A stretch of DNA of 63,447 nt, filler included, from Anaerolineae bacterium (lineage in GTDB: Bacteria; Chloroflexota; Anaerolineae; B4-G1; DUEL01), in assembly GCA_041082215.1 (NCBI GenBank). It is 10 parts of 10 records of this genome, joined end to end, with 100 filler letters (N's around TTAATTAATTAA, not from the genome) between each part and the next. Parts side by side here need not be neighbours in the genome. Positions count along the whole stretch, not along the records: positions 53,812 to 59,144 come from JBDOIF010000090.1; 9 more parts are not named here. One strand, 5' to 3'. The position numbers and the translations under genes are program-made. Positions within the stretch are counted from its first letter, which is position 1. Each line of letters starts with the position of its first letter. The notes beneath the pieces were generated by a model. It saw only the letters and a program-made list of their open reading frames with translations, did no database searches and was not told where the DNA came from. Shown piece after piece: positions 2 through 59,144 of this stretch.

Positions 2-2188
2 GCGCGGATGGCGCAGGATTTCAGTCTGCGGTATCCGCTGGTGGATGGGCAGGGGAACTTTGGTTCGGTGGATGGGGACAGTCCGGCGGCGATGCGGTAC
101 ACCGAGGCCCGCCTGGCCCCCATCGCGATGGAACTGCTGGCCGACATTGACAAAGACACGGTCGAGTGGACCGGCAACTTCGACGGCAGCCTCCAGGAGC
201 CCCGCATCCTTCCGTCCCGACTCCCCAACCTGCTGGTGAACGGGGCGGCTGGGATCGCGGTGGGGATGGCGACCTCGATCCCGCCCCACAACCTGGGCGA
301 GGTCTGCGACGCCCTGAGTTTCCTGATCGAACACTGGGACGAACGGGATGAGGTCTCGACGGAAGAGCTGCTGCGGCTCCTCCCCGGTCCGGATTTCCCC
401 ACCGGGGGGATCATCCTGGGGGAAGAGGGGCTTGCCCAGGCTTACGCCACCGGGAAGGGGCAGGTCGTCGTCCGTGCTCTGACCCATATTGAAGAGATGA
501 ACGGGGGGCGGTACCGCATCGTCATCACCGAACTCCCCTATCAGGTCAACAAGAGCAGCCTGCTGGAACGGATCGCCGCCCTGGTGCGGGAGGGCCGCCT
601 TGAGGAGATCACCGACCTGCGGGATGAATCGGACCGCCGGGGGATGTCCATCATCCTTGAGTTAAAACGGGGTGCACAGCCGCGTAAGGTCCTCAACCGC
701 CTCTTCAAGTATACGCCGCTCCAATCCACCTTCGGCATCCAGTTGCTGGCCCTGGTGGATGGGGAGCCCCGTCTGCTTACTCTCAGGCGGACGCTGGAGC
801 TTTATGTCGAGCACCGGCGGGAGGTGATCGTCCGTCGCAGCCGATACGAGCTGGAAAAAGCCCGGGCCCGCGCCCACGTGCTGGAGGGGTTGAAAGTGGC
901 GCTGGACCACCTGGACGCAGTCATCGCCACGATCCGGCAGTCCCCCGATGTGGACGCTGCCCGTATACGGCTGATGGAGCGCTTCAACCTGACCGAGGTG
1001 CAGGCGCAGGCGATCCTGGATATGCAGTTGCGGCGGCTGGCGGCCCTGGAGCGGCAGAAGATTGACGAGGAGTACGAAGAGGTCATCCGGCTCATCGCCT
1101 ATCTGGAGGACCTCCTGGCCTCCCCCCGCAAGGTTCTGGCCCTGATCCGGACCGAGCTGGAGGAGCTGAAGGGACGGTATGCGGATAGCCGGAGGACCCG
1201 CATTGCGCCGGAAGCGGACGCGATGCTCGAAGAGGAAGACCTGGTCGCCGAGGAGGATGTGCTGATCTCTATCACCCGCCGGGGCTATATCAAGCGGGTT
1301 CCGGTGGAAGTCTACCGGACGCAGACGCGGGGCGGCCGCGGTGTGCGCGGGATGGCGACGCGGGAGGAGGATGCCGTCCTTTACCTCTTTTCCGCCCACA
1401 CCCTCAATCCCATCCTCTTCTTCACCAACAAGGGCAAGGTCTATATGGAGCGGGCCTACCAGATCCCGGCTGCTGACCGAACGGCCGGCGGCGTCCTCCT
1501 GGCCAGCATCCTGGCGCTGGATGCCGACGAGCGGGTCACGGCTGCCGTACCGGTGCCGGACTTCAACCAGGCCCGCTTTCTCACCATGGTCACCGTCGGG
1601 GGGCGGGTGAAGCGGCTCCCCCTCTCAGAGCTGGCCAGCGTGCGGCCCAGCGGGCTGATCGCTATCAAGCTGGATGAAGGGGACGAGCTGGGCTGGGTTC
1701 TCCTCACCCCAGGCGACGCCGAGCTGATCCTGGTGACGGAGCAGGGGCAGGCGCTTCGCTTCGCCGAGGGGGAGGTCCGGCCAATGGGGCGGGCGGCGGC
1801 TGGTGTCAGCGGTATCCGGCTGGAGAAGGGGGATCGGGTCGCCAGTGCGGAGGTGGTTGCCGGGGGAAGCGAACTGCTGGTGGTGACCGAGAGGGGGTAT
1901 GGCAAACGGACCCCCCTGGAGGAGTTCCGCGCCCAGGGGCGGTACACCGCAGGCGTGCGGTGCATCGGGGGGCAGCCGCAGACCCGCGGTCGGGTTGCGG
2001 CGGCCCGGGTGGTTGACCCCGGGGACGAAGTGACCCTCATCTCCTCGGACGGGATGGTGCTGCGCGCTCCCCTTTCCACCATCCCCCAGATGGGCCGGGC
2101 GGCCCGGGGGGCAAAAGTGATGGAGCTGAAGGAAGGGGACCGGGTGGCATCGGTAGCGGTGCTGGAAGGGGAGGAGACGCAGGGGTAG
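2..2188 (+). CDS. gyrA: DNA gyrase subunit A (5'-truncated by window edge)
   Basis: Catalytic AAMRYTEAR motif, [15 protein letters not shown], GyrA-box-like QTRGGRG and C-terminal beta-pinwheel repeats; frame open from the window start. Confidence 0.96.
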
Positions 2189-2220
2189 CGGTTGAGTTTT
2201 CGGTGTTGTTGAGGAGAACG

Positions 2221-3588
2221 ATGATCACCGCCTGGTTGTCAGATCGCCGCCCTGGTCAGCTACTGGCAGTGATGCCGGTCCTGGATGCGGACCTCCTGGC
2301 GGAGACGATGGTCGCCTTTGCCAACGCCGACGGCGGCACCATCGTCCTGGGAGTGGACGAATCCGGCCGGGCCACGGGCGGGCTGTATCCCGAAGAGGCA
2401 GGGGAAACGGTCCAGGCCGCCCTCCGCCTCTGCCGCCCCGTCGTGCAGACGGAGTGGCATCAGGAGGAGGTCGCCGGGGGGTTCGTCTTCTTCATCCGCG
2501 TCCCCCGCAGCACCGAGCTGCATAGCCTGGCCGATGGCCGCGTCCTCATCCGCACCGGCGCCGAAAACCGGCCCCTTTCGGGCGAGGAGATCCGGCAACT
2601 GGCCGCCACCAAGTCCACAGGGGACTTCGAGGCGCAGACGATGCCGGGAGCGCGGCGGGAGGACTTCGACGAGGAGGTCGTCCAGGAGTTCGTCGCTCGC
2701 TGGCAGGAGAAGCAGGGGCGGGAATGGGGCCGGTCGGTGGATGACCTGCTGTTCCAGATGGGTGCGCTGAATGAGGACCGATCCCCCACCGTGGCCGGCG
2801 TCCTGCTTTTCGGCGCCGCCCCCCAGTTCTTCCTGCCCCAGAGCGGGCTGGTCTTTGTCAAATTCCCCGGCACCGAGCCGCGGGGGGAGGACGGGCGGGC
2901 CGGGTACGGACGCCGGGAGGAGATCGGCGGCCCGCTGCCCCGCATCATCCAGCGCACCTGGGCTGTGATTATGGAAGAGATGCGGATCGGGGCGGTGGTC
3001 AAAGGACTGGAACGGGAGGAGAAAACAGAATACCCTCCGGCAGCGGTCCGCGAGGCGCTGGTCAACGCCGTCGCCCACCGGGATTACCGGCTCCGGGGGC
3101 GCCGCATCGAGGTGCGGATGTTCGCCGACCGGATGGAGATCATCAGCCCCGGCGGGCTGCCCGGCTACATCACCCTGGATAACATCGTCGAAGAGCACTT
3201 CTCCCGTAACCCCCGCATCGTCGCCGGCCTCTTCCAGTGGGGGTATATCGAGGAGCTGGGGCTGGGGGTTGACCTGATGATAGACGAAATGACCTCCGCC
3301 GGCCATCCGCCTCCCCACTTCCGGGCCGAGCCATATCTGTTCAGCGTCACCCTCTACAACCGTCAGGAGCGCCTCCCCATCGCCCGCTGGCAGTGGGTGA
3401 TGAACGAGCGACAGGCCAAGGCGCTGGAATATCTCCAGCGACACGGGCGTATCTCCAGCCGGGAGTATCACGCCCTCTGCCCCGACGTCAGCGCCGAGAC
3501 ACTCCGGCTGGACCTGAAGGACCTGGTGGATAAGGGGATCCTGCTGAAGATCGGGGACAAGAAGGGAACGTATTATATCCTCAAGTAG
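2221..3588 (+). CDS. AlbA_2 (Schlafen-like) + HATPase_c_4 (RecG-C-like) + winged-HTH protein
   Basis: AFANADGGTIVLGVDE (AlbA_2), AVREALVNAVAHRDY and SPGGLP...RNP (HATPase_c_4), C-terminal wHTH (LRLDLKDLVDKG...G.KKGTYY); RBS GAGGAG before ATG 2221. Confidence 0.85.
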   Translation: MITAWLSDRRPGQLLAVMPVLDADLLAETMVAFANADGGTIVLGVDESGRATGGLYPEEAGETVQAALRLCRPVVQTEWHQEEVAGGFVFFIRVPRSTELHSLADGRVLIRTGAENRPLSGEEIRQLAATKSTGDFEAQTMPGARREDFDEEVVQEFVARWQEKQGREWGRSVDDLLFQMGALNEDRSPTVAGVLLFGAAPQFFLPQSGLVFVKFPGTEPRGEDGRAGYGRREEIGGPLPRIIQRTWAVIMEEMRIGAVVKGLEREEKTEYPPAAVREALVNAVAHRDYRLRGRRIEVRMFADRMEIISPGGLPGYITLDNIVEEHFSRNPRIVAGLFQWGYIEELGLGVDLMIDEMTSAGHPPPHFRAEPYLFSVTLYNRQERLPIARWQWVMNERQAKALEYLQRHGRISSREYHALCPDVSAETLRLDLKDLVDKGILLKIGDKKGTYYILK

Positions 3589-3607
3589 CAAGGTGGGTGG
3601 AGAGGGG

Positions 3608-3643
3608 CGCAGGGACGCGGAGAAGCGGAGAAGCGGAGACACT
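3608..3643. repeat. Short 8-mer tandem repeat (GCGGAGAA/GCGGAGAC family)
   Basis: gcagggac-gcggagaa-gcggagaa-gcggagac; related units at 10722-10808 and about 24380-24425. Confidence 0.55.
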
Positions 3644-3659
3644 GTGAGAGGAGGGGAAC

Positions 3660-4880
3660 GTGAAACGGGACCTGGATCGGCTGATGGAGGAGCGGGGGCT
3701 GGACGCGGCTGTGGTGAACGGGCCGACCTACGGCAATCCCAACCTGGTCTATCTGCTCAACGGCGCGGCGGTAAGCCAGGGGATCGTGGTCAAGAAGCGG
3801 GGAGAGGAGCCGGTCTTCCTCCATTCCCCTATCGAGCGGGATGAGGCAAAAGCGACCGGACTGCGGCTGGTCAATATGGCCCGCTACGACTTTGTCTCCA
3901 TCCTCCGGGAGAGGGGGGACCGGCTGGAGGCCACGGTGGAGCTTTACCGCCGGATTTTCGCCGACCTGGAAGTGCGCGGAGAGGTGGGATTCTACGGCAC
4001 CGCCGACCAGGGGCGGGCCTACGTCTTCCTCAAGGCACTGGACGAGGCCCTCCCCGACGTCCACGTGCGCGGCGAGTACGAGCGGGGCCTCTTCGAAGTG
4101 GCCCGGGAGACCAAGGATGGGGCGGAGATCGCCCAGATGCGGGAGGTGGCCCACCTGACCTGTCAGGTAATGCAGGAGACGGTTGAGTTCCTGCGCCGAC
4201 ACCGGGTCCGGGATGAAGTGCTGGTCACCGACGACGGCTCCCCGCTCACCGTCGGGGAGGTCAAACAGCACATCCTGCGCCTCCTGGCCGAACGGCGGCT
4301 GGAGGACCCGGAGGGGGTGATCTTCGCCATCGGACGGGATGCGGGCGTACCCCACAGCAAGGGCCGTCCCGAAGACCCCATCCGCCTGGGCCAGACCATC
4401 GTCTACGACCTGTTCCCGCGCCGGCCCGGCGGCTACTTCTTCGACGTCACCCGCACCTTCTGCCTGGGCTACGCTCCGCCAGAGGTGGAGCGGGTCTACG
4501 AAGACGTAAAGGGGTGCGTCCAGGCGGTGATCGAGGCCGTCGGGGTGGGGGTGGAGGCCCGGCGGCTTCAGCAGGTGGCCTGCGCCTACTTCGAGGAGCG
4601 GGGTCACCCCACCGTCGCCAGCAACTCCCAAACCGAGGAGGGATACGTCCATCTGGTGAGCCACGGGCTGGGGCTGGCCATCCACGAAGAGCCCTCCTTC
4701 TCCGACGTGCCCAACAACACCCAGACCCTCCAGCCTGGCCATGTCTTCACTGTCGAGCCGGGGCTTTATTACCCCGAGCGGGGATATGGGGTCCGCATTG
4801 AGGACGTGATCTGGATTGACGAGGAGGGTAACGTCGTGAATCTGACGGAACTCCCCAGGGAGCTGGTCGTCAAACTGTGA
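3660..4880 (+). CDS. Xaa-Pro aminopeptidase, M24 family
   Basis: Pita-bread metal ligands: DLFP...FDVTRT, HGLG..IHE, TVEPGLY, VRIED; GTG start after GAGGAGG. Confidence 0.9.
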   Translation: MKRDLDRLMEERGLDAAVVNGPTYGNPNLVYLLNGAAVSQGIVVKKRGEEPVFLHSPIERDEAKATGLRLVNMARYDFVSILRERGDRLEATVELYRRIFADLEVRGEVGFYGTADQGRAYVFLKALDEALPDVHVRGEYERGLFEVARETKDGAEIAQMREVAHLTCQVMQETVEFLRRHRVRDEVLVTDDGSPLTVGEVKQHILRLLAERRLEDPEGVIFAIGRDAGVPHSKGRPEDPIRLGQTIVYDLFPRRPGGYFFDVTRTFCLGYAPPEVERVYEDVKGCVQAVIEAVGVGVEARRLQQVACAYFEERGHPTVASNSQTEEGYVHLVSHGLGLAIHEEPSFSDVPNNTQTLQPGHVFTVEPGLYYPERGYGVRIEDVIWIDEEGNVVNLTELPRELVVKL

Positions 4881-44681: not shown

Positions 44682-44873
44682 AGGTGTATTTCAGTCTGGG
44701 GGCGGGATGTCCCCCGCCCGGGCCGGACCTGGGGAGACACGAATGGCACGAATGGAAACGAATACCGCGAATGGGGCAGGGATCCCTCCTGTTCGCGGTA
44801 TTCGGGCCATTCGTGGGATTCGCGATCCACCGGCGGGCGAGAGGACCACTTGCCCCGAAATTGAAATACGCCC
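44682..44873. mobile_element. MITE copy 1 (~192 bp)
   Basis: TIRs AGGTGTATTTCA / TGAAATACGCCC; flanks ATTGCATTG / ATCGCAGTG (degenerate TSD); near-identical inverted copy at 55589-55781. Confidence 0.85.
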
Positions 44874-52648: not shown

Positions 52649-53497
52649 TCACTCCCCCACGTAGTAGGCCAGCCCCAGCGCCCCCGGGCCGGCATGGACC
52701 CCCAGCACGGGCGCGACCATCTCGATATAGACCTCGACGCAGCGGAACCGGGCGAGCAGTTCCTCCTTTACCCGCTGGGCCTCTTCGATTGCGCCGGTGT
52801 GAAGGACCGCCACATGCAGGGGGGCATCCCCCACCCGTTCCGCCAGCTCGCTCAACATCCGATGGATCGCTTTAGCCCGGGTACGGGCCTGTCCGACGAT
52901 GCCCACCTCATTCCCCCGCACACGGACCAGCGGCTTGACCCGGAGCAGGTTATCCACCATACGGGCCGCCCAGGCCAGCCGCCCGCCACGGACGGCATAC
53001 TCCAGCGATTCCACCGTGGCGATCAGATCGATCCTGGGGATCACAGCCCGAACCCGCCGGACGACCTCAGCCAGCGATGCCCCCGCCTCAGCCGCCCGCG
53101 CCGCTACCAGGACGGCAAACCCCTGCGCCATCGAGATGGTCCCGGAATCCAGGACCTCGATGGGAAAGGGGGCCAGCTCCCGTGCCGCTGACTGCGCCGC
53201 GCTGAAAACGCCGCTGTAACGACCCGTCAGATGGACGGATACGATCGCCTCCGCCTTCTCCTGGATCCGGCGGTAGAACTCCAGGAACTCCCCCAGCGAG
53301 GGCTGAGAAGTCCCCACCCGCCTGACCCGCTCTCCCAGCCGCCGGAAGAACTCCAGCGGCTGAATCTCCACCCCATCCCGATAGGACTGATCCTCGATTT
53401 GAACCCACAGGGGGATCACTTCGATCCCATACCGCTCCACCAGCGGCCCGGGGAGGTTGGCTCCCGAATCGGTCGCAACGGCTACCTTTCTCTTCAT
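52649..53497 (-). CDS. DegV family fatty-acid-binding protein
   Basis: ATDS, TSQPS, H....SG....A, DS..IS, RGGRL, KPL, VHAGPG.LG. Confidence 0.94.
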   Translation of the reverse strand: MKRKVAVATDSGANLPGPLVERYGIEVIPLWVQIEDQSYRDGVEIQPLEFFRRLGERVRRVGTSQPSLGEFLEFYRRIQEKAEAIVSVHLTGRYSGVFSAAQSAARELAPFPIEVLDSGTISMAQGFAVLVAARAAEAGASLAEVVRRVRAVIPRIDLIATVESLEYAVRGGRLAWAARMVDNLLRVKPLVRVRGNEVGIVGQARTRAKAIHRMLSELAERVGDAPLHVAVLHTGAIEEAQRVKEELLARFRCVEVYIEMVAPVLGVHAGPGALGLAYYVGE

Positions 53498-53520
53498 CCC
53501 TATTTTCCTTTCTTGACCCA

Positions 53521-53566
53521 ATCTTAGCATAGTTCGGCTGTGCGTCAAGTCCACCTGTGGTATAAT
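53521..53566. promoter_or_regulatory. Overlapping divergent promoters (degV operon / GNAT gene)
   Basis: Minus strand TTGACG-N16-TAAGAT (53548-53521); plus strand TGgTATAAT (53558-53566). Confidence 0.55.
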
Positions 53567-53577
53567 ATGTGACCACT

Positions 53578-53711
53578 ATGAGCCATTTCAAGCTCCGCCT
53601 GATGGCTCCAACGGACGCTGACGAGGTCCGTTTCCTGGACCAGGCGGCCTTCGGCGACTGGATGTATCGCCGTAGGTACAACGAACCCATGCCCCAGCGC
53701 ACCCGCGCCAA
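53578..53711 (+). CDS. N-terminal fragment of a probable GNAT-family protein
   Basis: LRLM.P.D..EV..LD..AF pattern; cut by the contig end. Confidence 0.45.
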
Positions 53712-53811
53712 NNNNNNNNNNNNNNNNNNNNNNNNNNNNNNNNNNNNNNNNNNNNTTAATTAATTAANNNNNNNNNNNNNNNNNNNNNNNNNNNNNNNNN
53801 NNNNNNNNNNN
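53712..53811. other. Artificial contig linker
   Basis: N44-TTAATTAATTAA-N44. Confidence 0.98.
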
Positions 53812-53860
53812 CCCTCTCCCACAAGCGGGAGAGGGGGAGGGGCAGGGGAGGGGGTGAGGG
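53812..53860. repeat. CCCTCTCCC..GGGAGAGGG..GGGGTGAGGG REP-like repeat at contig end
   Basis: Same style as 24209-24267, 26478-26520 and 59079-59144. Confidence 0.65.
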
Positions 53861-54070
53861 TCACCGCGTCAACGTCAGTTTGAACTCGTCCCCCACCGCC
53901 TCTACCTGCACCTTCAGGCCGGCCCGTTCAGCCGCCCGGCGCACGTTCTCGCGGGAGGTGACGGTATCCACCAGGACCTCAATGGGAAACTGCCCCTCCC
54001 CCATCGCCTGCCGGGTGAGGATGACCGGCTGGGGGCAGGATAGGCCCCGCGCATCCACAACTTTGGCCAT
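53861..54070 (-). CDS. TusA/SirA/YedF-family sulfur(selenium)-carrier protein
   Basis: VDARGLSCPQPV motif, 69 aa; RBS GGAGGT; directly downstream of the YedE gene. Confidence 0.93.
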   Translation of the reverse strand: MAKVVDARGLSCPQPVILTRQAMGEGQFPIEVLVDTVTSRENVRRAAERAGLKVQVEAVGDEFKLTLTR

Positions 54071-54112
54071 CTTTACACCTCCGATAGTGCGCTTGGTAAA
54101 ACCCAGCACGAT

Positions 54113-54139
54113 GTAGCGCAAGATTGAATCTTGCGCTAC
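54113..54139. repeat. Perfect GTAG-type palindrome overlapping the YedE stop codon
   Basis: GTAGCGCAAGATT-g-AATCTTGCGCTAC (13-bp arms). Confidence 0.85.
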
Positions 54140-55251
54140 GACCGCTCGCGCATGGTGAAGCCCAGCACGATGCAGAAGACCAGTCCAATAATGACGGCGG
54201 CCTGTCCGTAGGGACCGGGTCCGCCCACTGTGAGCACGCCCTCGGCCAGTTTGTCGGGGACGCCAGCCAGGGCCCAGTTGTGGGCAAAGCCCGCGCCGAA
54301 GATCATCCCCAGGACGAAGAGGCCGGCGTCGCCGTCCCCCTCACCGGAGAGGAAGAGCTGACGGCCCGGGCAGCCGCCCGCCAGGAGGAAGGCCAGCCCG
54401 GCCAGCGCCATCCCCAGGAAGTTCCAGATGTGGCTGGAATGGGCGACCGGCTGGGCGACGAAGCCCGGATTGAACTGCCCCAGGACCAGATTGGTGATCA
54501 GGGCGACCACGAAGAGCGCGCCGACACCGGTGATGAGGTGAGTATCCCCCATCAGAATGACGTCCCGCCAGGCGCCCATCGTGCAGAAGCGGGTGCGCTG
54601 GGCCAGAAAGCCGATGAGCAGCCCCACACCCAGGGAGATGAGGACAGGGGCATGCTTGGAACCGGGGCCCTCTACGCTGAAGAAGATGGGGCCTTCGGGC
54701 GCGAACTGGGGGCGGAAGAGGAGGAGGAGCAGGAGGCCCAGCATGATGGCGGGCATGATCCAGCCAACGGGGGCCGGTGCCGGGCGGCTGCGGCCCAGGG
54801 AGTAGCCCCGCTTCAGGAAGAAGACGCCCAGGGCAATGCCGGCGACCAGCCCGGCGGTGCCCACCAGGCCGTTCAGGTCACCGCCCGCCAGCCGCAGGAG
54901 CGCCCGCCACGGGCAGCCCAGAAAGACCAGGGCGCCGATCATGGCGAACATCCCCAGCAGGAAGCGGACGATGGGGGCGGAACCGGCGCGGGGCTTGAAC
55001 TCCCGGAAGAGGAGGGCGGCGATGGTGGAGCCGAGGACGAAGGCGATGATCTCCGGGCGGATGTACTGGACGAGGGCTGCCCGATGCAGCCCCAGCGCCC
55101 CGGCGATGTCCCGCTCGAAGCAGGCCACGCAGATGCCCATATTGGTGGGGTTGCCGGCTTTCTGCAGAAGCGGGGCCAGCAGGCCGATGACTGCCCCGGC
55201 CAGGAGGATACCCCAGCGCGAGGCAAAGAAACGGGTGAGACGCTCAGACAT
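54136..55251 (-). CDS. yedE: YedE-family putative selenium transporter (YeeE/YedE superfamily)
   Basis: GNP.NMGICVACF.RDIAGALGLH, QYIRPEI, LVFLGCP.R, AQRTRFC, GGCPGRQL; multiple TMs; RBS AAGGAGG. Confidence 0.9.
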   Translation of the reverse strand: MSERLTRFFASRWGILLAGAVIGLLAPLLQKAGNPTNMGICVACFERDIAGALGLHRAALVQYIRPEIIAFVLGSTIAALLFREFKPRAGSAPIVRFLLGMFAMIGALVFLGCPWRALLRLAGGDLNGLVGTAGLVAGIALGVFFLKRGYSLGRSRPAPAPVGWIMPAIMLGLLLLLLFRPQFAPEGPIFFSVEGPGSKHAPVLISLGVGLLIGFLAQRTRFCTMGAWRDVILMGDTHLITGVGALFVVALITNLVLGQFNPGFVAQPVAHSSHIWNFLGMALAGLAFLLAGGCPGRQLFLSGEGDGDAGLFVLGMIFGAGFAHNWALAGVPDKLAEGVLTVGGPGPYGQAAVIIGLVFCIVLGFTMRERS

Positions 55252-55320
55252 CGTTACGTACCTCCTTATCGTTGGATTTTCCACGCGCCGGGCCGATGCC
55301 CGGACACGGCGTGGGCAACG

Positions 55321-55351
55321 AAAAACCGCCGCCAGCACACGCCGACGGCGG
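55321..55351 (-). terminator. Intrinsic terminator (attenuator 3:4 helix) in the yedE leader
   Basis: Minus strand CCGCCGTCGGC-gtgt-GCTGGCGGCGG-TTTTT, 11 bp with 2 G-U pairs, about 70 nt upstream of the yedE start. Confidence 0.85.
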
Positions 55352-55377
55352 ATGGGAGGTACATGCCCCGCTTCGCT

Positions 55378-55485
55378 TCAGGGCGCGGCCTCACCGCCGC
55401 CCCCCGACGTGTGCCAGACGACCCACGGGCACCGCCCGGTGCCCCAGGCCCCACCTCAGGTGCGGCGGTGGCGCAACCCGAACAT
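55378..55485 (-). CDS. Putative selenocysteine-containing leader peptide (MFGLRHRRT-U-GGAWGTGRCPWVVWHTSGGGGEAAP)
   Basis: RBS AAGGAG 55498-55493, ATG 55485, in-frame TGA at codon 10 (55458-55456), frame stays open to TGA 55380-55378. Confidence 0.65.
55420..55450 (-). promoter_or_regulatory. Bacterial SECIS-like hairpin
   Basis: GGGCACC-GGGC-GGTGCCC (55444-55427) starts exactly 11 nt 3' of the UGA; G-initiated 4-nt apical loop; weaker lower stem ggcct/gggtc. Confidence 0.65.
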
Positions 55486-55542
55486 CGGTCTACTCCTTGC
55501 CTTCGCGGTAATTCGCTCGCTGCAGGTGTGCAACTGATGCTA

Positions 55543-55571
55543 ATTATACTCTAATCTGCATCATTTGACCA
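55543..55571 (-). promoter_or_regulatory. Sigma70 promoter of the leader-yedE-tusA transcript
   Basis: TGGTCA-N17-TATAAT on the minus strand. Confidence 0.65.
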
Positions 55572-55588
55572 GTCCGTGAAGTTCGCAG

Positions 55589-55781
55589 GGGCGTATTTCA
55601 ATTTCGGGGCGAGTGGTCCTCCCGCCCGCCGGTGGATCGCAAATCCCACGAATGGCCCGAATACAGCGAATTAGGAGGGATACCTGCTCCATTCGCGGTA
55701 TTCGTTTCTATTCGCGCCATTCGTGTTTCCCCAGGTCTGGCCCGGGCCAGAGACATCTCGCCCCCAAACCGAAATACACCT
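55589..55781. mobile_element. MITE copy 2 (inverted relative to copy 1)
   Basis: GGGCGTATTTCA ... GAAATACACCT; flanked by direct repeat AGTTCGCAG (55580-55588 and 55783-55791). Confidence 0.88.
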
Positions 55782-55854
55782 GAGTTCGCAGATAGATATC
55801 CCCCTGGCATGTCCGGGGATCGCGAACCCCGCGAGCCAGGCGAATAAGGGCCTA

Positions 55855-56973
55855 TTATTCGCCACCCTTCGGCGTTACCCCTGTTTTGAGGCCGCTGCCG
55901 GTGAGGATCACCACGACCGTTCCACCCAGCTCTCCCTCGGCCCGCAGTCGGGTCAGCGCGGCCACCGCCAGGGCGGAGGTCGGCTCGACGTAGAAGCCCC
56001 GATAGGCCAGCCGGCGCTGTGCGGGCAGAATGTCCACCTCTGGCACCGCCAGGAGCCGACCCCCGCTCCTCCGCACCGCCTCCAGCACCGCCCGGCCCCG
56101 CACAGGTGCGGCGATCCGCACCCCCTCGGCTATCGTCTCCCCCTCCTCGATAGATGCCGGCTCTTCTTTCCCTTTCTCCCAGGCGGTCGCCAGCGGCGCG
56201 CACGGTGCCGCCTGCACGCCGAAGAGACGGGGCAGGTGGGCGATGCACCCTGCTGCCATCAACTCCGCCCATCCCCGCGCCAGCCCCAGAAGCAGGGAGC
56301 CGTGCCCCACCGGCAGGACGATGGCGTCCGGCACGTGGGGAGGAGGGAGCTGCTCGTAAAGCTCGAAGGCCACCGTCTTCATCCCGTGGTGGATCAGGGG
56401 GTGGTAGACATGGCTGGCATACGCCGCCCCACGATACGCTGCCTCCAGTACCGCCCGCGCTGCCTCGGTCCGCGGCCCGGGCACGGGGACCACCTGCGCT
56501 CCGTATGCCGCGATCTGAGCCTGCTTGGCCGGTGAGGCGTGGGCAGGGACGTAGACCGTAGCACGGATGCCCGCCCGGGCGGCATAAGCGGCCAGGCTCG
56601 ACCCCGCGTTGCCCGACGAGTCCTCCACCACCTCCTCCACGCCCGCTGCCGCCAGCGCCGTCATCAATACCGCTGTGCCCCGGTCCTTGAACGAACCGGT
56701 GGGATTGAGGAACTCGCACTTGAAGAGGACCGGCAGCCCCTCCCACTCCGCCGCCACCAGGGGGGTCATCCCCTCCCCCAGCGTGACCGGCGTCGCTCCT
56801 TCTGGCAGCGGGAAGGCGTGTCGGTACCGCCACAGCGTCAGATCGGCCCCTTCTACCCGAGCCGGATCGTAGACGGGCGGCTCTTCGATCTCCAGAACCC
56901 CGCCACAGTCGCACCGGAACCGGATGGGGTCAGGCGGATAGGCCCTTGAACAGCTCGAACAGCTCAGGCGCAC
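55855..56973 (-). CDS. thrC: Threonine synthase-like PLP enzyme
   Basis: N-terminal CxxC..CxC, TLGEGMTPL, NPTGSFKDRG, DSSGNAG, PVGHG, VEPTSA, LTGSGLK. Confidence 0.85.
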   Translation of the reverse strand: MRLSCSSCSRAYPPDPIRFRCDCGGVLEIEEPPVYDPARVEGADLTLWRYRHAFPLPEGATPVTLGEGMTPLVAAEWEGLPVLFKCEFLNPTGSFKDRGTAVLMTALAAAGVEEVVEDSSGNAGSSLAAYAARAGIRATVYVPAHASPAKQAQIAAYGAQVVPVPGPRTEAARAVLEAAYRGAAYASHVYHPLIHHGMKTVAFELYEQLPPPHVPDAIVLPVGHGSLLLGLARGWAELMAAGCIAHLPRLFGVQAAPCAPLATAWEKGKEEPASIEEGETIAEGVRIAAPVRGRAVLEAVRRSGGRLLAVPEVDILPAQRRLAYRGFYVEPTSALAVAALTRLRAEGELGGTVVVILTGSGLKTGVTPKGGE

Positions 56974-57001
56974 TTTCCCTCTCCCCCCGATGATAGGGGA
57001 G

Positions 57002-57030
57002 ATAATACCATCGAACAGGAGAGCAGGCAA
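57002..57030 (-). promoter_or_regulatory. Sigma70 promoter for thrC
   Basis: TTGCCT-N17-TATTAT with extended TGn (minus strand). Confidence 0.6.
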
Positions 57031-57048
57031 CCCGGCTGTCCGGGCAGG

Positions 57049-57861
57049 TCAACCCCGCCGCACCAGCCACACTGCTTCCCCCTTCTGCCCGCGCCCCCGC
57101 TCCAGGTCGGTCATCCATAACTTCAAGGGGCGATCCCCGGACCAGAAGAAGACCTCCGAGCGGAGCCGGTCGAGCGTACGGGCATCCGGCGCGACGAAGA
57201 GGAGGTGCCCCTCCCCGATTGCATGGCAGGCCTCCCAGCGGGCCTCCCGCTCGGCGGGGGGACGGCTCAGGTCCTCCACCTCCACCGGCAGCTCCTTCCC
57301 CTCCAGCCGGAGGATCAGGTCTGGCCGGAAGGCCGTGTTGCCGGAGGCGGAGAGAGGGCCAGACGGGAACACCACCTCGTAGCCGGCCGCGGCAAGGAGG
57401 TCCGCTGCTGCCCGGACCGGCGGCCGTGGGACGAGCGGATGGGGGGACAGGAGAGCTTCGGTCATCTGAAGTCGCTGCCGCAAGCGTTCTGCTTCCGCCT
57501 CCGCCCGTGCTGCCCGCGCCTCGGCGCTCTTCAGGCGGGCCTCCAATTGGCGCAGCCGGGCCTTCAGCTCGGCCGTCCTGGTGGCCGGTTCCTGCTCCTG
57601 GCGGCCGGCCCGTAGTCTGGGGGCCAGGGCTTTCAGCACCATCTGCGCCACCTGGCGGGGTGTGAGAGCGGCCAGTCCGTCGGGGGATTGGCTGCGGAGC
57701 CGGTCTACCTCTTCCGGGCAGACAGCCTCTGCCAGATGTTCCAGCTCCTGTTGCACCTCTCGCGCCCGATCCTCCGCGGCCTTGCGGAGGCGGGCCTGTG
57801 CCTCCAGGAGGGCCTGGAGCTGGCGGAGGGAGAGTTCCTGGGCTTGCTGTTCAGGGTCCAT
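57049..57861 (-). CDS. Coiled-coil protein with C-terminal PD-(D/E)xK-like domain
   Basis: Heptad-rich N-terminal half; FRPDLIL...LPVEVE motif near the C-terminus. Confidence 0.6.
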   Translation of the reverse strand: MDPEQQAQELSLRQLQALLEAQARLRKAAEDRAREVQQELEHLAEAVCPEEVDRLRSQSPDGLAALTPRQVAQMVLKALAPRLRAGRQEQEPATRTAELKARLRQLEARLKSAEARAARAEAEAERLRQRLQMTEALLSPHPLVPRPPVRAAADLLAAAGYEVVFPSGPLSASGNTAFRPDLILRLEGKELPVEVEDLSRPPAEREARWEACHAIGEGHLLFVAPDARTLDRLRSEVFFWSGDRPLKLWMTDLERGRGQKGEAVWLVRRG

Positions 57862-58387
57862 TCAGCCAGACGCTTCTTTCTACCGTGACTCGCAGCCCTC
57901 GCGCCCGCCGCAGTACCTCCAGCGCGGCGCGGCGGTTTTCTGGCTCCGGTGCGCCTACCCATTGAGCGGCGGCCAGGACTGCCTGATGGTGGGCTTCGGC
58001 GGCGGCCCGGATCTGTTCGGCGAATCCCGTCAGGGCAGGAGGGGGGGTAGAGAAAGCGGCTTCGCGATGGATTGCGATGGCCCGATCTATCAACCCCTCG
58101 ACCTCGTGAACCAGCCCGTAGAGCCGGACCGGATCGGCCCCTCCATCCACGCTCAGCAGAGCAGTGAGGTCCCTATCCACCCTTTCCATCTCCCTCATCC
58201 ATCGGAGCACCATCTGGCGGTATTTTTCTGCTGCATATACGGAGGGGGAGAGGAGCAGAGGACGGCCTGCTCCGTCGCGGGGAGTCAGACGGGCGCCGAG
58301 GAGGTAGCAGAGAGCGAGGGCGGCCCATACGGTTGCCGTCCAGGCCACTACCCGCAGGAAGCGGCGGGAGAGCCGCAGCCGGATCAA
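57851..58387 (-). CDS. Hypothetical protein with N-terminal TM anchor and helical domain
   Basis: Hydrophobic segment followed by TP....GRP.LLSP; overlaps both neighbours. Confidence 0.6.
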   Translation of the reverse strand: MIRLRLSRRFLRVVAWTATVWAALALCYLLGARLTPRDGAGRPLLLSPSVYAAEKYRQMVLRWMREMERVDRDLTALLSVDGGADPVRLYGLVHEVEGLIDRAIAIHREAAFSTPPPALTGFAEQIRAAAEAHHQAVLAAAQWVGAPEPENRRAALEVLRRARGLRVTVERSVWLNGP

Positions 58388-58761
58388 GCCACCGCCTCCA
58401 CAGGAGGGAGTTCTCCCTCAGAAAGGAGTCGGGCGCGGGCTGCTTCCCCCCGCTCCCAGTCAATCTTGTCAATGAAGACGATGTGATCGGCCACGAACTC
58501 ATGGACCGTCTCGTCGTTATCATGCCGTTTCCGCTGGCGGTAGCGGGCCTGGACCATGATCTTGGAGCCGACGCGGAGGTAAGGGTAGCTCAACAGGGCG
58601 ACATCGCCATAGGCGACAACCCGCACGTAGGAGGCATGGTCCTTTCCATCGTCCACGGCCAGGTAAAGACGCAGGAAGGGGAGGTTGGAGGTACCGATCC
58701 GCTGGAAGTGAGGCGGGTGAGTGATGTTGCCAATGAAGCGACAGTCGTTATTCCAGGTCAT
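58384..58761 (-). CDS. ssb: Single-stranded DNA-binding protein (short, no acidic tail)
   Basis: N...FIGNIT..P, LAVD, VVAYG..A......L..GS.I.V.AR...R, EFVA..I.F; RBS GGAGG. Confidence 0.85.
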   Translation of the reverse strand: MTWNNDCRFIGNITHPPHFQRIGTSNLPFLRLYLAVDDGKDHASYVRVVAYGDVALLSYPYLRVGSKIMVQARYRQRKRHDNDETVHEFVADHIVFIDKIDWERGEAARARLLSEGELPPVEAVA

Positions 58762-58992
58762 TGCCCGCCTCCTGGGAAGAGGGTCCATTGGTTGGGTGTG
58801 TTGTGAGCATCGTTGGCCTCCTTGAGGTGTGTTTGGGCTGAAGTCCTGCGCCCGAGACGGGCACAGGGCAGGCAGAGGAAGGGAACTCCCCGATGGGGGC
58901 AGGGAAAAGCGCGGGGCCAATGCCCCGGTGGGCATTGAGCTGAGGTCTCATCGGACAGCTGCGATGAAAACAACAATGGTTTCTGGTGGGAA

Positions 58993-59020
58993 ATTATAGT
59001 GGGCTTTGGCAAAGTGTCAA
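58993..59020 (-). promoter_or_regulatory. Consensus sigma70 promoter for the ssb operon
   Basis: TTGACA-N16-TATAAT on the minus strand. Confidence 0.75.
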
Positions 59021-59029
59021 GTCCTTGTT

Positions 59030-59144
59030 CTGAGGTTCGGACGCGGGTTCGGACACAGGCACTCATCGGCTGCTTCTGACCTCACCCCATTCCCCTCACC
59101 CTACCCCCAGGCCCCCACCCCACACCCCCGCGGCGGGCGAGGGG
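59030..59144. repeat. Terminus of the repeated element also seen at 24209-24299
   Basis: CTGAGGTTCGGAC....GTT.GGACAC ... CCTCACCCCA. Confidence 0.65.

Follow-up and report, generated by a model that had tools for sequence, protein, structure and literature searches.

Transcription attenuators of the trpL, hisL and pheL type share a short translated 5' leader open reading frame (ORF), in which the sensed amino acid is encoded by one or more regulatory codons, and a set of alternative 1:2, 2:3 and 3:4 pairings that ends in an intrinsic terminator, with a ribosome on region 2 allowing termination. Here we describe a leader of comparable organization on the minus strand upstream of yedE, which encodes a putative selenium transporter, in a 63,447-nt stretch of DNA from an Anaerolineae bacterium (GCA_041082215.1; ten records joined end to end, hereafter the window, the leader lying in the part at 53,812 to 59,144). 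Its candidate regulatory codon is an in-frame UGA that would be read as selenocysteine (Sec), and such codons are in tandem in four of the related loci. The leader differs from the trp-type systems in that decoding would involve recoding of a stop codon, requiring SelB and an mRNA hairpin, rather than the reading of a sense codon, in that failure would mean release-factor termination or a stall at UGA, in that the genes served take up the element rather than synthesize the amino acid, and in that a segment complementary to the Shine-Dalgarno (SD) sequence of yedE (anti-SD) adds translational control.

With the bacterial Sec insertion sequence (SECIS) of Escherichia coli fdhF the leader shares the in-frame UGA, a hairpin 11 nt further on and a loop at nucleotides 22-25 with G22 and G23 (and U24 in most leaders), but it encodes a 35-codon, non-conserved peptide and not an enzyme, its stem is a perfect 7-bp G+C helix without a bulged U, position 24 is a G in the window, and its binding by SelB is a prediction. 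The E. coli selAB element likewise places a SECIS-type hairpin in the 5' untranslated region of a selenium-related operon; it reportedly senses the level of SelB-GTP-Sec-tRNA, represses when this is high, has no UGA, leader ORF or terminator, and lies 3 nt from the SD (PMC13449736), whereas in the leader a translated ORF contains the hairpin, which is some 160 nt 5' of the yedE SD and any action of which would be by way of decoding. The definition of a selAB-type operator, a hairpin adjoining the SD without UGA or ORF, does not fit this leader. For fdhF(Sec) of Treponema primitia, selenium is reported to control transcript elongation by way of translation through the UGA and SECIS coupled to transcription; there the UGA is inside the selenoenzyme gene and a decoding failure lowers downstream transcription (PMC3892789), a logic that a dedicated leader, through its terminator and antiterminator, would invert in an uptake operon. 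Short upstream ORFs that sense the supply of a chalcogen amino acid are also represented by the mycobacterial polycysteine attenuators, whose translation reports cysteine supply and tunes the operon; these are reported to consist of runs of ordinary Cys codons in leaderless ORFs with no recoding signal (bioRxiv 10.1101/834739).

No description of a Sec-codon leader peptide or attenuator was found in the full-text literature (subscription journals and supplements lying outside the scope of the search), in agreement with an earlier reading of the window made from its sequence (the original prediction), which knew of no described example. To our knowledge, little has been established on how selenium status is sensed, and selenium uptake controlled, in bacteria. 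The available parts of a 2026 review of prokaryotic selenoproteomes (PMC13188914) and of the 2015 comparative-genomics paper that proposed YedE (PMC5322559) do not mention such a leader, and the nearest published systems found are the selAB SECIS-like operator (PMC13449736) and the translation-coupled transcription of T. primitia fdhF(Sec) (PMC3892789). According to a 2024 study of Methanococcus maripaludis, no dedicated selenium transporter is known in any organism (PMC11097638).

A conserved UGA-containing leader upstream of yedE

We consider it very likely that the region upstream of yedE is a Sec-decoding regulatory leader of some kind, and we favor, with rather less assurance, the full proposal that it is a ribosome-mediated attenuator in which Sec is the sensing codon, the sign of the regulation included. 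Rereading of the minus strand placed the promoter, ribosome-binding site (RBS), ATG, UGA, spacer, hairpin and second stop exactly where the original prediction had put them, to the base, and the terminator, the anti-SD and the antiterminator strand are three elements additional to its list. The elements of the leader in the window are:

55543-55571, minus strand: sigma-70-type promoter with -35 TGGTCA, a 17-nt spacer and -10 TATAAT at 55548-55543
55493-55498, minus strand: Shine-Dalgarno sequence AAGGAG of the leader ORF, 7 nt 5' of the ATG
55459-55485, minus strand: first part of the leader ORF, ATG plus eight codons, MFGLRHRRT
55462-55470, minus strand: region 1, CACCGCCGC, leader codons 6-8, complement of GCGGCGGTG within region 2
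55456-55458, minus strand: in-frame UGA, candidate Sec codon (tenth codon)
55427-55444, minus strand: SECIS-like hairpin GGGCACC-GGGC-GGTGCCC, 7-bp stem, 11-nt spacer after the UGA
55378-55455, minus strand: second part of the leader ORF, 25 codons after the UGA plus the stop TGA at 55380-55378
55389-55410, minus strand: region 2, the 5' strand of the antiterminator, ACGTCGGGGGGCGGCGGTGAGG, G-rich and inside the post-UGA frame
55355-55364, minus strand: anti-SD ATGTACCTCC, complement of the yedE SD region GGAGGTACGT, paired in the minimum-free-energy fold
55321-55351, minus strand: intrinsic terminator, 11-bp stem CCGCCGTCGGC/GCTGGCGGCGG (55351-55326) with loop GTGT, followed by TTTTT
55261-55267, minus strand: Shine-Dalgarno sequence AAGGAGG of yedE, paired in every equilibrium fold

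The promoter matches the consensus at 10/12 positions, and the promoter scan found one promoter-like site versus 0.3 expected in shuffles. After the ATG the leader codons are TTC GGG TTG CGC CAC CGC CGC ACC, followed by the TGA at 55458-55456, and the predicted peptide of the 35-codon ORF is MFGLRHRRT-U-GGAWGTGRCPWVVWHTSGGGGEAAP. This ORF would be the first on the yedE-yedF transcript. Counted from the U of the UGA, the hairpin loop GGGC occupies nucleotides 22-25, and the lower stem extends to about 55450-55421. The 297-nt leader as a whole is much more stable than its shuffled counterparts (z = -3.53).

Conservation was examined in species-representative genomes with YedE, which provided 288 loci, the best 80 of which were analyzed; these come mostly from metagenome-assembled genomes (MAGs) of Anaerolineae and Thermoflexales, other phyla accounting for the remainder. 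In about 55 of the 80 loci, at 160-290 nt upstream of yedE, a simple scan detected a short ORF that terminates with TGA and has a G-containing hairpin after it, and the same scan of upstream regions found no TAA or TAG counterpart with such a hairpin at the leader position. The leader ORF has 4-13 codons and starts with ATG, GTG or TTG, with an SD-like motif 5' of the start in most related loci. A covariance model (R1) built from 32 leaders gives the window a score of 102.9 bits. Of the 80 yedE loci it matches 44 at E<=0.01, and 13 of these 44 had no part in the training set. The hairpin is paired in 97.3% of cells of the alignment, with compensatory changes in six of its seven pairs. Given these R1 matches and the pairing and compensatory changes of the hairpin, the leader architecture, as judged by comparison, is far beyond chance. 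The leaders of yedE orthologs thus retain the SD, the start, the short ORF, the UGA, the 11-nt spacer and a covarying hairpin, the pattern of conservation on which the original prediction had proposed to be judged. Carriers are found in at least four phyla, comprising Chloroflexota, Desulfobacterota (L053, L059, L073), Fibrobacterota (L060, L070), a Candidatus Eisenbacteria MAG (L049) and a Thermovirgaceae MAG (L077), with L059 and L077 detected by pattern only and not by R1.

When metagenome contigs were scanned with a degenerate pattern of the leader, yedE itself not being part of the pattern, at least 120 stretches matched, of which 80 were fetched, and R1 matched 18 of these 80 at E<=0.01. 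In 14 of the 18 yedE follows 111-159 nt downstream, in 12 of them with yedF as well, and the remaining four are weak matches with no yedE after them (L174, which is inside a coding region; L127, with the score and length of L174; L167; and L177). Among the matches listed, no leader was found before a gene other than yedE, the search pattern being derived from yedE leaders. A phylum-wide R1 search gave one match among 151 genomes, in the genome on which the search was centered, and it says nothing about distribution because scoring in each genome was limited to 24 of the thousands of first-look candidates. In Rfam 15 the whole window has no match at gathering score, and in E-value mode the interval 55100-55700 has seven matches, all below gathering scores, the best of which (E = 0.18) is outside the leader. 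As there is no Rfam match, the leader is not a catalogued riboswitch or SECIS family.

The reading frame beyond the UGA bears on the central question of whether the UGA is read through. Frame statistics were obtained for 55 leaders, which form 38 clusters below 80% identity. Frame 0 is free of stops for at least 54 nt after the UGA in 55/55 leaders, as compared with 37 and 35 of 55 for frames +1 and +2, and the first frame-0 stop falls 69-96 nt after the UGA in 50/55 versus 3/55 (+1) and 5/55 (+2). In a model-based alignment, the triplet aligned with the second TGA of the window is a stop in all 44 complete rows (TGA in 32, TAG in 7, TAA in 5) and in 41 of them shares the frame of the first UGA, at distances of 72, 75 (32 rows), 78, 81, 90 and 93 nt; the first stop is TGA in 44/44 rows and the second varies. 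The open frame is also maintained in the A+T-rich leaders of the Desulfobacterales (L053 and L073, with 33% and 39% G+C after the UGA), which have exactly 25 open codons and whose two remaining frames reach a stop codon after 25 and 8 nt. Four leaders (L039, L053, L059 and L073) have an in-frame UGA-NNN-UGA, the downstream UGA of each pair being the one at the canonical spacing, 18 nt from the hairpin loop. The 25 open codons to the TGA at 55380 that the original prediction had noted are therefore a frame and a stop conserved across leaders, and the comparative evidence that the UGA would be read through is strong. Upstream of the UGA, codon -3 specifies Arg in 48/55 and codon -1 Thr in 40/55 leaders, but since CGC dominates, constraint on the peptide and on the RNA are inseparable for this Arg-Arg-Thr motif, and we make no claim of an arrest peptide. 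The residues after the putative Sec are poorly conserved, as seen in GGAWGTGRCPWVVW (window), SDNRGAGWRPQTAG (L001) and KIFNYAGSVEFNVF (L053).

The original prediction had also likened the hairpin to a SECIS, with an 11-nt distance from the UGA and a loop beginning with G, and both are present in the window. Codon 140 of E. coli fdhF is TGA and its apical loop is G22 G23 U24 C25 (NC_000913.3); this register at nucleotides 22-25 is common to fdhF, the window (G22 G23 G24 C25) and L002 (G22 G23 U24 U25). The stem of the window starts at nucleotide 15 on the same count, in the register of fdhF, and the selD hairpins of four leader-bearing genomes (G001, G003, G004, G005) start at nucleotide 15 as well, hence comparison with the SECIS elements of true selenoprotein genes (selD, fdhF) gives the same register. 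Over 55 leaders, nucleotides 22-25 include GGTT in 16, AGTT in 7, GGTC in 3, and GGGC, GGCC and GTTC in 4 each.

The machinery for Sec was found in leader-bearing relatives. A selB gene scored above the cut-off in 10/10 leader-bearing genomes tested, and in the first five (holding L002, L005, L007, L053 and L060) selB, selA, tRNA-Sec and selD were each found in 5/5, with tRNA-Sec scores of 66.9-72.1 bits and one in-frame TGA in every selD. Judging from these relatives, the genome of the window presumably has the Sec machinery.

Mutually exclusive helices and a proposed mechanism

An intrinsic terminator was detected in 41 of 57 leaders and none was detectable in the other 16. RNAalifold on the wide alignment (A1) recovers the hairpin only, the other helices coming from narrower alignments (A2, A4), and the helices of the switch were scored on an alignment of 29 leaders. 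In the latter the terminator helix is 93.4% paired and the antiterminator helix 89.7% paired (34-56% when its partner is slid), each with 6 of 11 pairs compensatory, and the two use the same 5'-arm columns and are thus mutually exclusive. The anti-SD segment of the antiterminator is only 60% paired in the same alignment, and the helix between regions 1 and 2 is paired in 83.0% of cells, with four of nine pairs compensatory. In duplex predictions the anti-SD and the 5' arm of the terminator are repeatedly paired with a stretch whose start is 48 nt downstream of the UGA, at -41 kcal/mol in the window. When partners were swapped between loci to give non-cognate pairs, the cognate partners were favored for the antiterminator helix 2:3 (-23.2 versus -21.8 kcal/mol; 1/2000 permutations as low), for the anti-SD:SD helix (-16.6 versus -13.9 kcal/mol; 0/2000) and for helix 1:2 (-17.7 versus -15.5 kcal/mol; 0/2000). 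Sequence comparison thereby establishes a leader with the marks of translation, an invariant UGA, a covarying hairpin in SECIS register, a conserved in-frame second stop and two exclusive covarying helices; insertion of Sec, binding of SelB, the kinetics and the sign of regulation are what we infer from them.

Forty-one leaders were folded at equilibrium with ribosome-sized blocks, and those with a terminator probability above 0.5 were counted. The terminator passed this threshold in 24/41 leaders as free RNA, in 18/41 with the block at the UGA, in 24/41 with the block at the second stop, and in 39/41 with the block on region 2. In these models it is a robust result that a ribosome translating past the UGA would remove the antiterminator.

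We therefore suggest the following sequence of events. When Sec-tRNA(Sec)-SelB is available, Sec would be inserted at the UGA and the ribosome would translate 25 more codons through region 2, which, being occupied, could not pair with the anti-SD and the 5' arm of the terminator; the terminator (55351-55326) would then form, the anti-SD (55364-55355) would close the yedE RBS, and the operon would be off. When selenium or Sec-tRNA is short, translation would end or stall at the UGA with the ribosome also covering region 1, and region 2 would be free to pair with region 3, disabling terminator and anti-SD, so that yedE and yedF would be made. This sign, with the operon off when selenium is sufficient, would fit by analogy the behavior of M. 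maripaludis, in which yedE mRNA rises by +5.28 log2 on selenium starvation (PMC11097638). The comparative tests that could be applied all support the original prediction in its reading of the locus as an attenuator leader that would sense Sec. More broadly, it is rather likely, in our estimation, that these leader ORFs form a family in several phyla, for which we use the term 'selenostat', in which recoding of UGA by SelB and Sec-tRNA would be the sensor, the translating ribosome gauging how far the cell can make the 21st amino acid and, by means of a terminator/antiterminator and an anti-SD, setting the expression of genes for the uptake and activation of selenium, with tandem UGAs sharpening the response in the manner of the tandem Trp codons of trpL. 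As part of that same joint proposal, its targets would be yedE-yedF and, in relatives, also a NifS-like enzyme, a DsrE-like protein and selD.

Several observations weigh against this interpretation. The loop of the window keeps G23 but has G, not U, at 24, and both G23 and U24 of the fdhF apical loop are important. A bulged U in the upper stem is a further feature of the E. coli SECIS, and the leader stems are uninterrupted 6-9 bp helices that have none; the bulge may be specific to E. coli SelB. No Rfam family matched the leader, bacterial SECIS models included. As to the machinery, the scan of 58 ORFs of at least 230 aa in the window revealed no sel gene, and selB is also present in 4/5 leaderless yedE genomes, so that its co-occurrence is a necessary condition and does not discriminate. 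The second stop is within a local hairpin that covaries (at pair 88/118, 19 rows have CG and 6 have UA), and the TGA/TAG variation of this stop is accordingly in part an effect of RNA pairing. The frame has its exceptions. In L013 the homologous stop is out of frame and there is another in-frame stop at 60 nt; in the yedE-proximal copy of L017 it is likewise out of frame, 25 nt having been inserted and another in-frame TGA having arisen 16 nt 5' of the old one (for the truncated second leader copy of L017, inspection by eye gives an in-frame stop at 123 nt); and the two Fibrobacterota leaders, L060 and L070, have no second stop, their post-UGA frames running for 333 and 306 nt. These two frames cross the yedE start out of frame, and read-through ribosomes would pass over the yedE initiation site. 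On the side of the switch, equilibrium folding poorly separates free RNA from the block at the UGA (24 versus 18 of 41), the yedE SD is paired under all four ribosome placements modeled, which makes its accessibility uninformative on the sign, and region 2 has at least three possible partners. Finally, release factor 2 (RF2) normally releases the ribosome quickly at UGA, for which reason a lasting stall there is an assumption.

Of the alternatives, the one that departs least from our proposal keeps the Sec-decoded leader and changes the coupling, such that read-through would open a downstream structure or couple to yedE, with the operon on when Sec can be made, or such that control would be mainly translational. 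We regard this as unlikely, although it could serve selenium trafficking or detoxification and has several points in its favor: the 16/57 leaders without a detectable terminator have only an SD-sequestering helix that begins about 14 nt after the second stop (e.g., L067, L069, L080), which a ribosome ending at that stop could melt, the read-through frames of L060 and L070 cross the yedE start, and a block exactly on the second stop gives a terminator above 0.5 in only 24/41 leaders. It is opposed by the fact that the translated stretch is itself the 5' strand of the antiterminator, occupation of which gives the terminator in 39/41, and by the expectation that uptake genes rise on starvation, as yedE does in M. 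maripaludis (PMC11097638). Somewhat less probable again is an operator for SelB without decoding, in which the UGA would be the plain stop of a nine-codon upstream ORF and SelB-GTP-Sec-tRNA on the hairpin would shift the folding. The hairpin does covary and is in SECIS register, and a SelB-bound, SECIS-like repressor element is known from E. coli selAB (PMC13449736), but this leaves unexplained why frame 0 closes at 69-96 nt in 50/55 leaders (versus 3 and 5), as well as the length variants that keep the frame and the 25 open codons of A+T-rich leaders, and the hairpin is about 160 nt from the yedE SD rather than 3 nt as in selAB.

Two further explanations appear to us very improbable, the second marginally more so. 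One is that the 35-residue product is a functional small selenoprotein, for example a selenium carrier acting with YedE and YedF, instead of or in addition to being a sensor; an in-frame UGA with a SECIS-like hairpin is indeed the usual signature of a selenoprotein gene and the ORF would be co-transcribed with selenium genes, but no Cys or other partner residue is kept, the conserved parts map onto RNA helices, the ORF overlaps the terminator/antiterminator switch, and the poor conservation of the peptide after the putative Sec disfavors the idea. The other is a metabolite riboswitch or untranslated structural leader, the features of an ORF being by-products of G+C-rich helices. The high degree of structure in the leader (z = -3.53) and its typical expression platform of terminator, antiterminator and anti-SD would suit this, but leaders from different phyla have SD-like motifs and ATG, GTG or TTG starts in front of the short ORF, the UGA does not vary, A+T-rich genomes maintain the frame too, and no multi-helix junction with conserved unpaired bases was seen and no Rfam family was matched. 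It is the frame statistics that disfavor both the riboswitch and the SelB operator. An altered genetic code with UGA as a sense codon was also considered and was dropped, no dedicated test of it being made.

If our proposal of a Sec-sensing attenuator is correct, it would be the first attenuator to sense a non-canonical amino acid and, apart from selAB and the synthesis of selenoproteins, the first case of a SECIS put to regulatory use, it would provide a direct mechanism for selenium homeostasis, and it would extend classical attenuation to a recoded stop codon. YedE and YedF would be functionally tied to the Sec pathway, because the leader was found only before yedE (with a pattern taken from yedE leaders). 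It would also represent a compact natural part of about 230 nt reporting the capacity for Sec insertion, possibly of use in engineering selenoprotein expression. UGA-containing ORFs of 30-45 codons are invisible to gene callers, and such leaders are likely to be mistaken for riboswitches.

Operon context and neighboring elements

The genes served by the leader in the window are:

54136-55251, minus strand: yedE, putative selenium transporter, 371 aa (TIGR04112 seleno_YedE, 487.2 bits, cut-off 200)
53861-54070, minus strand: small TusA/YedF-like protein, 69 aa (TIGR03527 selenium_YedF, 49.1 bits, below the cut-off of 110)

The TIGR04112 score, above its cut-off, bears out the earlier assignment of the downstream gene to the YedE family of putative selenium transporters. 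The 69-aa protein aligns to positions 1-62 of the 194 in the TIGR03527 profile, and its counterpart in L017 matches Pfam TusA. A DegV gene lies downstream of yedE-yedF and a threonine-synthase-like gene upstream. In the closest relatives (G001 contig C27, locus L097/L093) yedE-yedF is followed, at a distance of up to about 0.5 kb and on the same strand, by a selD that has a UGA of its own; in the compared interval of the window (52649-53861) the DegV gene follows instead, and no selD was found among the 58 ORFs scanned. The leader heads a longer selenium operon in relatives (G001, L017), the order in L017 being leader, yedE, TusA-like gene, class-V aminotransferase, DsrE-like gene and selD. 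The window is chromosomal, as it has gyrA, secY and rpoA; no tRNA was found in it, and the stretch was found in DNA runs labeled as hot-springs metagenomes.

Locus L017 has a second copy of the leader at L017:1-210 (60.7 bits), which is cut by the edge of the locus and in which an insertion of 48 nt leaves the post-UGA frame intact. Downstream of this copy are a nucleotidyltransferase/HepT toxin-antitoxin pair and genes for chorismate mutase and DAHP synthase, after which comes the normal leader-yedE operon, and the arrangement looks like a duplicated leader with an insertion between the copies.

Between the terminator and the yedE SD of the window there is a conserved stem, CCCACGCCGTG...CGCGTGG (55281-55315, minus strand), that encloses a variable hairpin. 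It recurs in nearly all leader-bearing loci and is also present, as CCACG...CGTGGAAATATCC, in loci that lack the Sec leader (e.g., L024, L036, L050). In an RNA library, a 170-nt contig matches 55237-55406 exactly and so spans the terminator and enters yedE; the contigs are of low depth, carry no information on 5' or 3' ends and may include carried-over DNA, and the 170-nt contig is weakly compatible with read-through transcripts in situ. The leaderless yedE loci of the Desulfobacterota (L061, L071, L072, L075) share an A+T-rich box, ATTGA(A/G)ATTAAC(A/T)ATTTGAC, with similar flanks about 90-110 nt before yedE, and this box possibly serves, in place of the Sec leader, as a promoter or a site for a regulator.

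Directly upstream of the leader promoter is a 193-nt repeat with long terminal complementarity (55588-55782), within which the weak Rfam match (DUF3800-XI, E = 0.18) is situated. A second copy at 44682-44873 is inverted and 90.7% identical. The repeat has folding energies of -90 to -102 kcal/mol. Word depth over it is about 1200-4500 in two DNA runs, versus about 8-30 in adjacent bins, and many contigs end loosely at its borders. It has the look of a miniature mobile element present in high numbers in the community.

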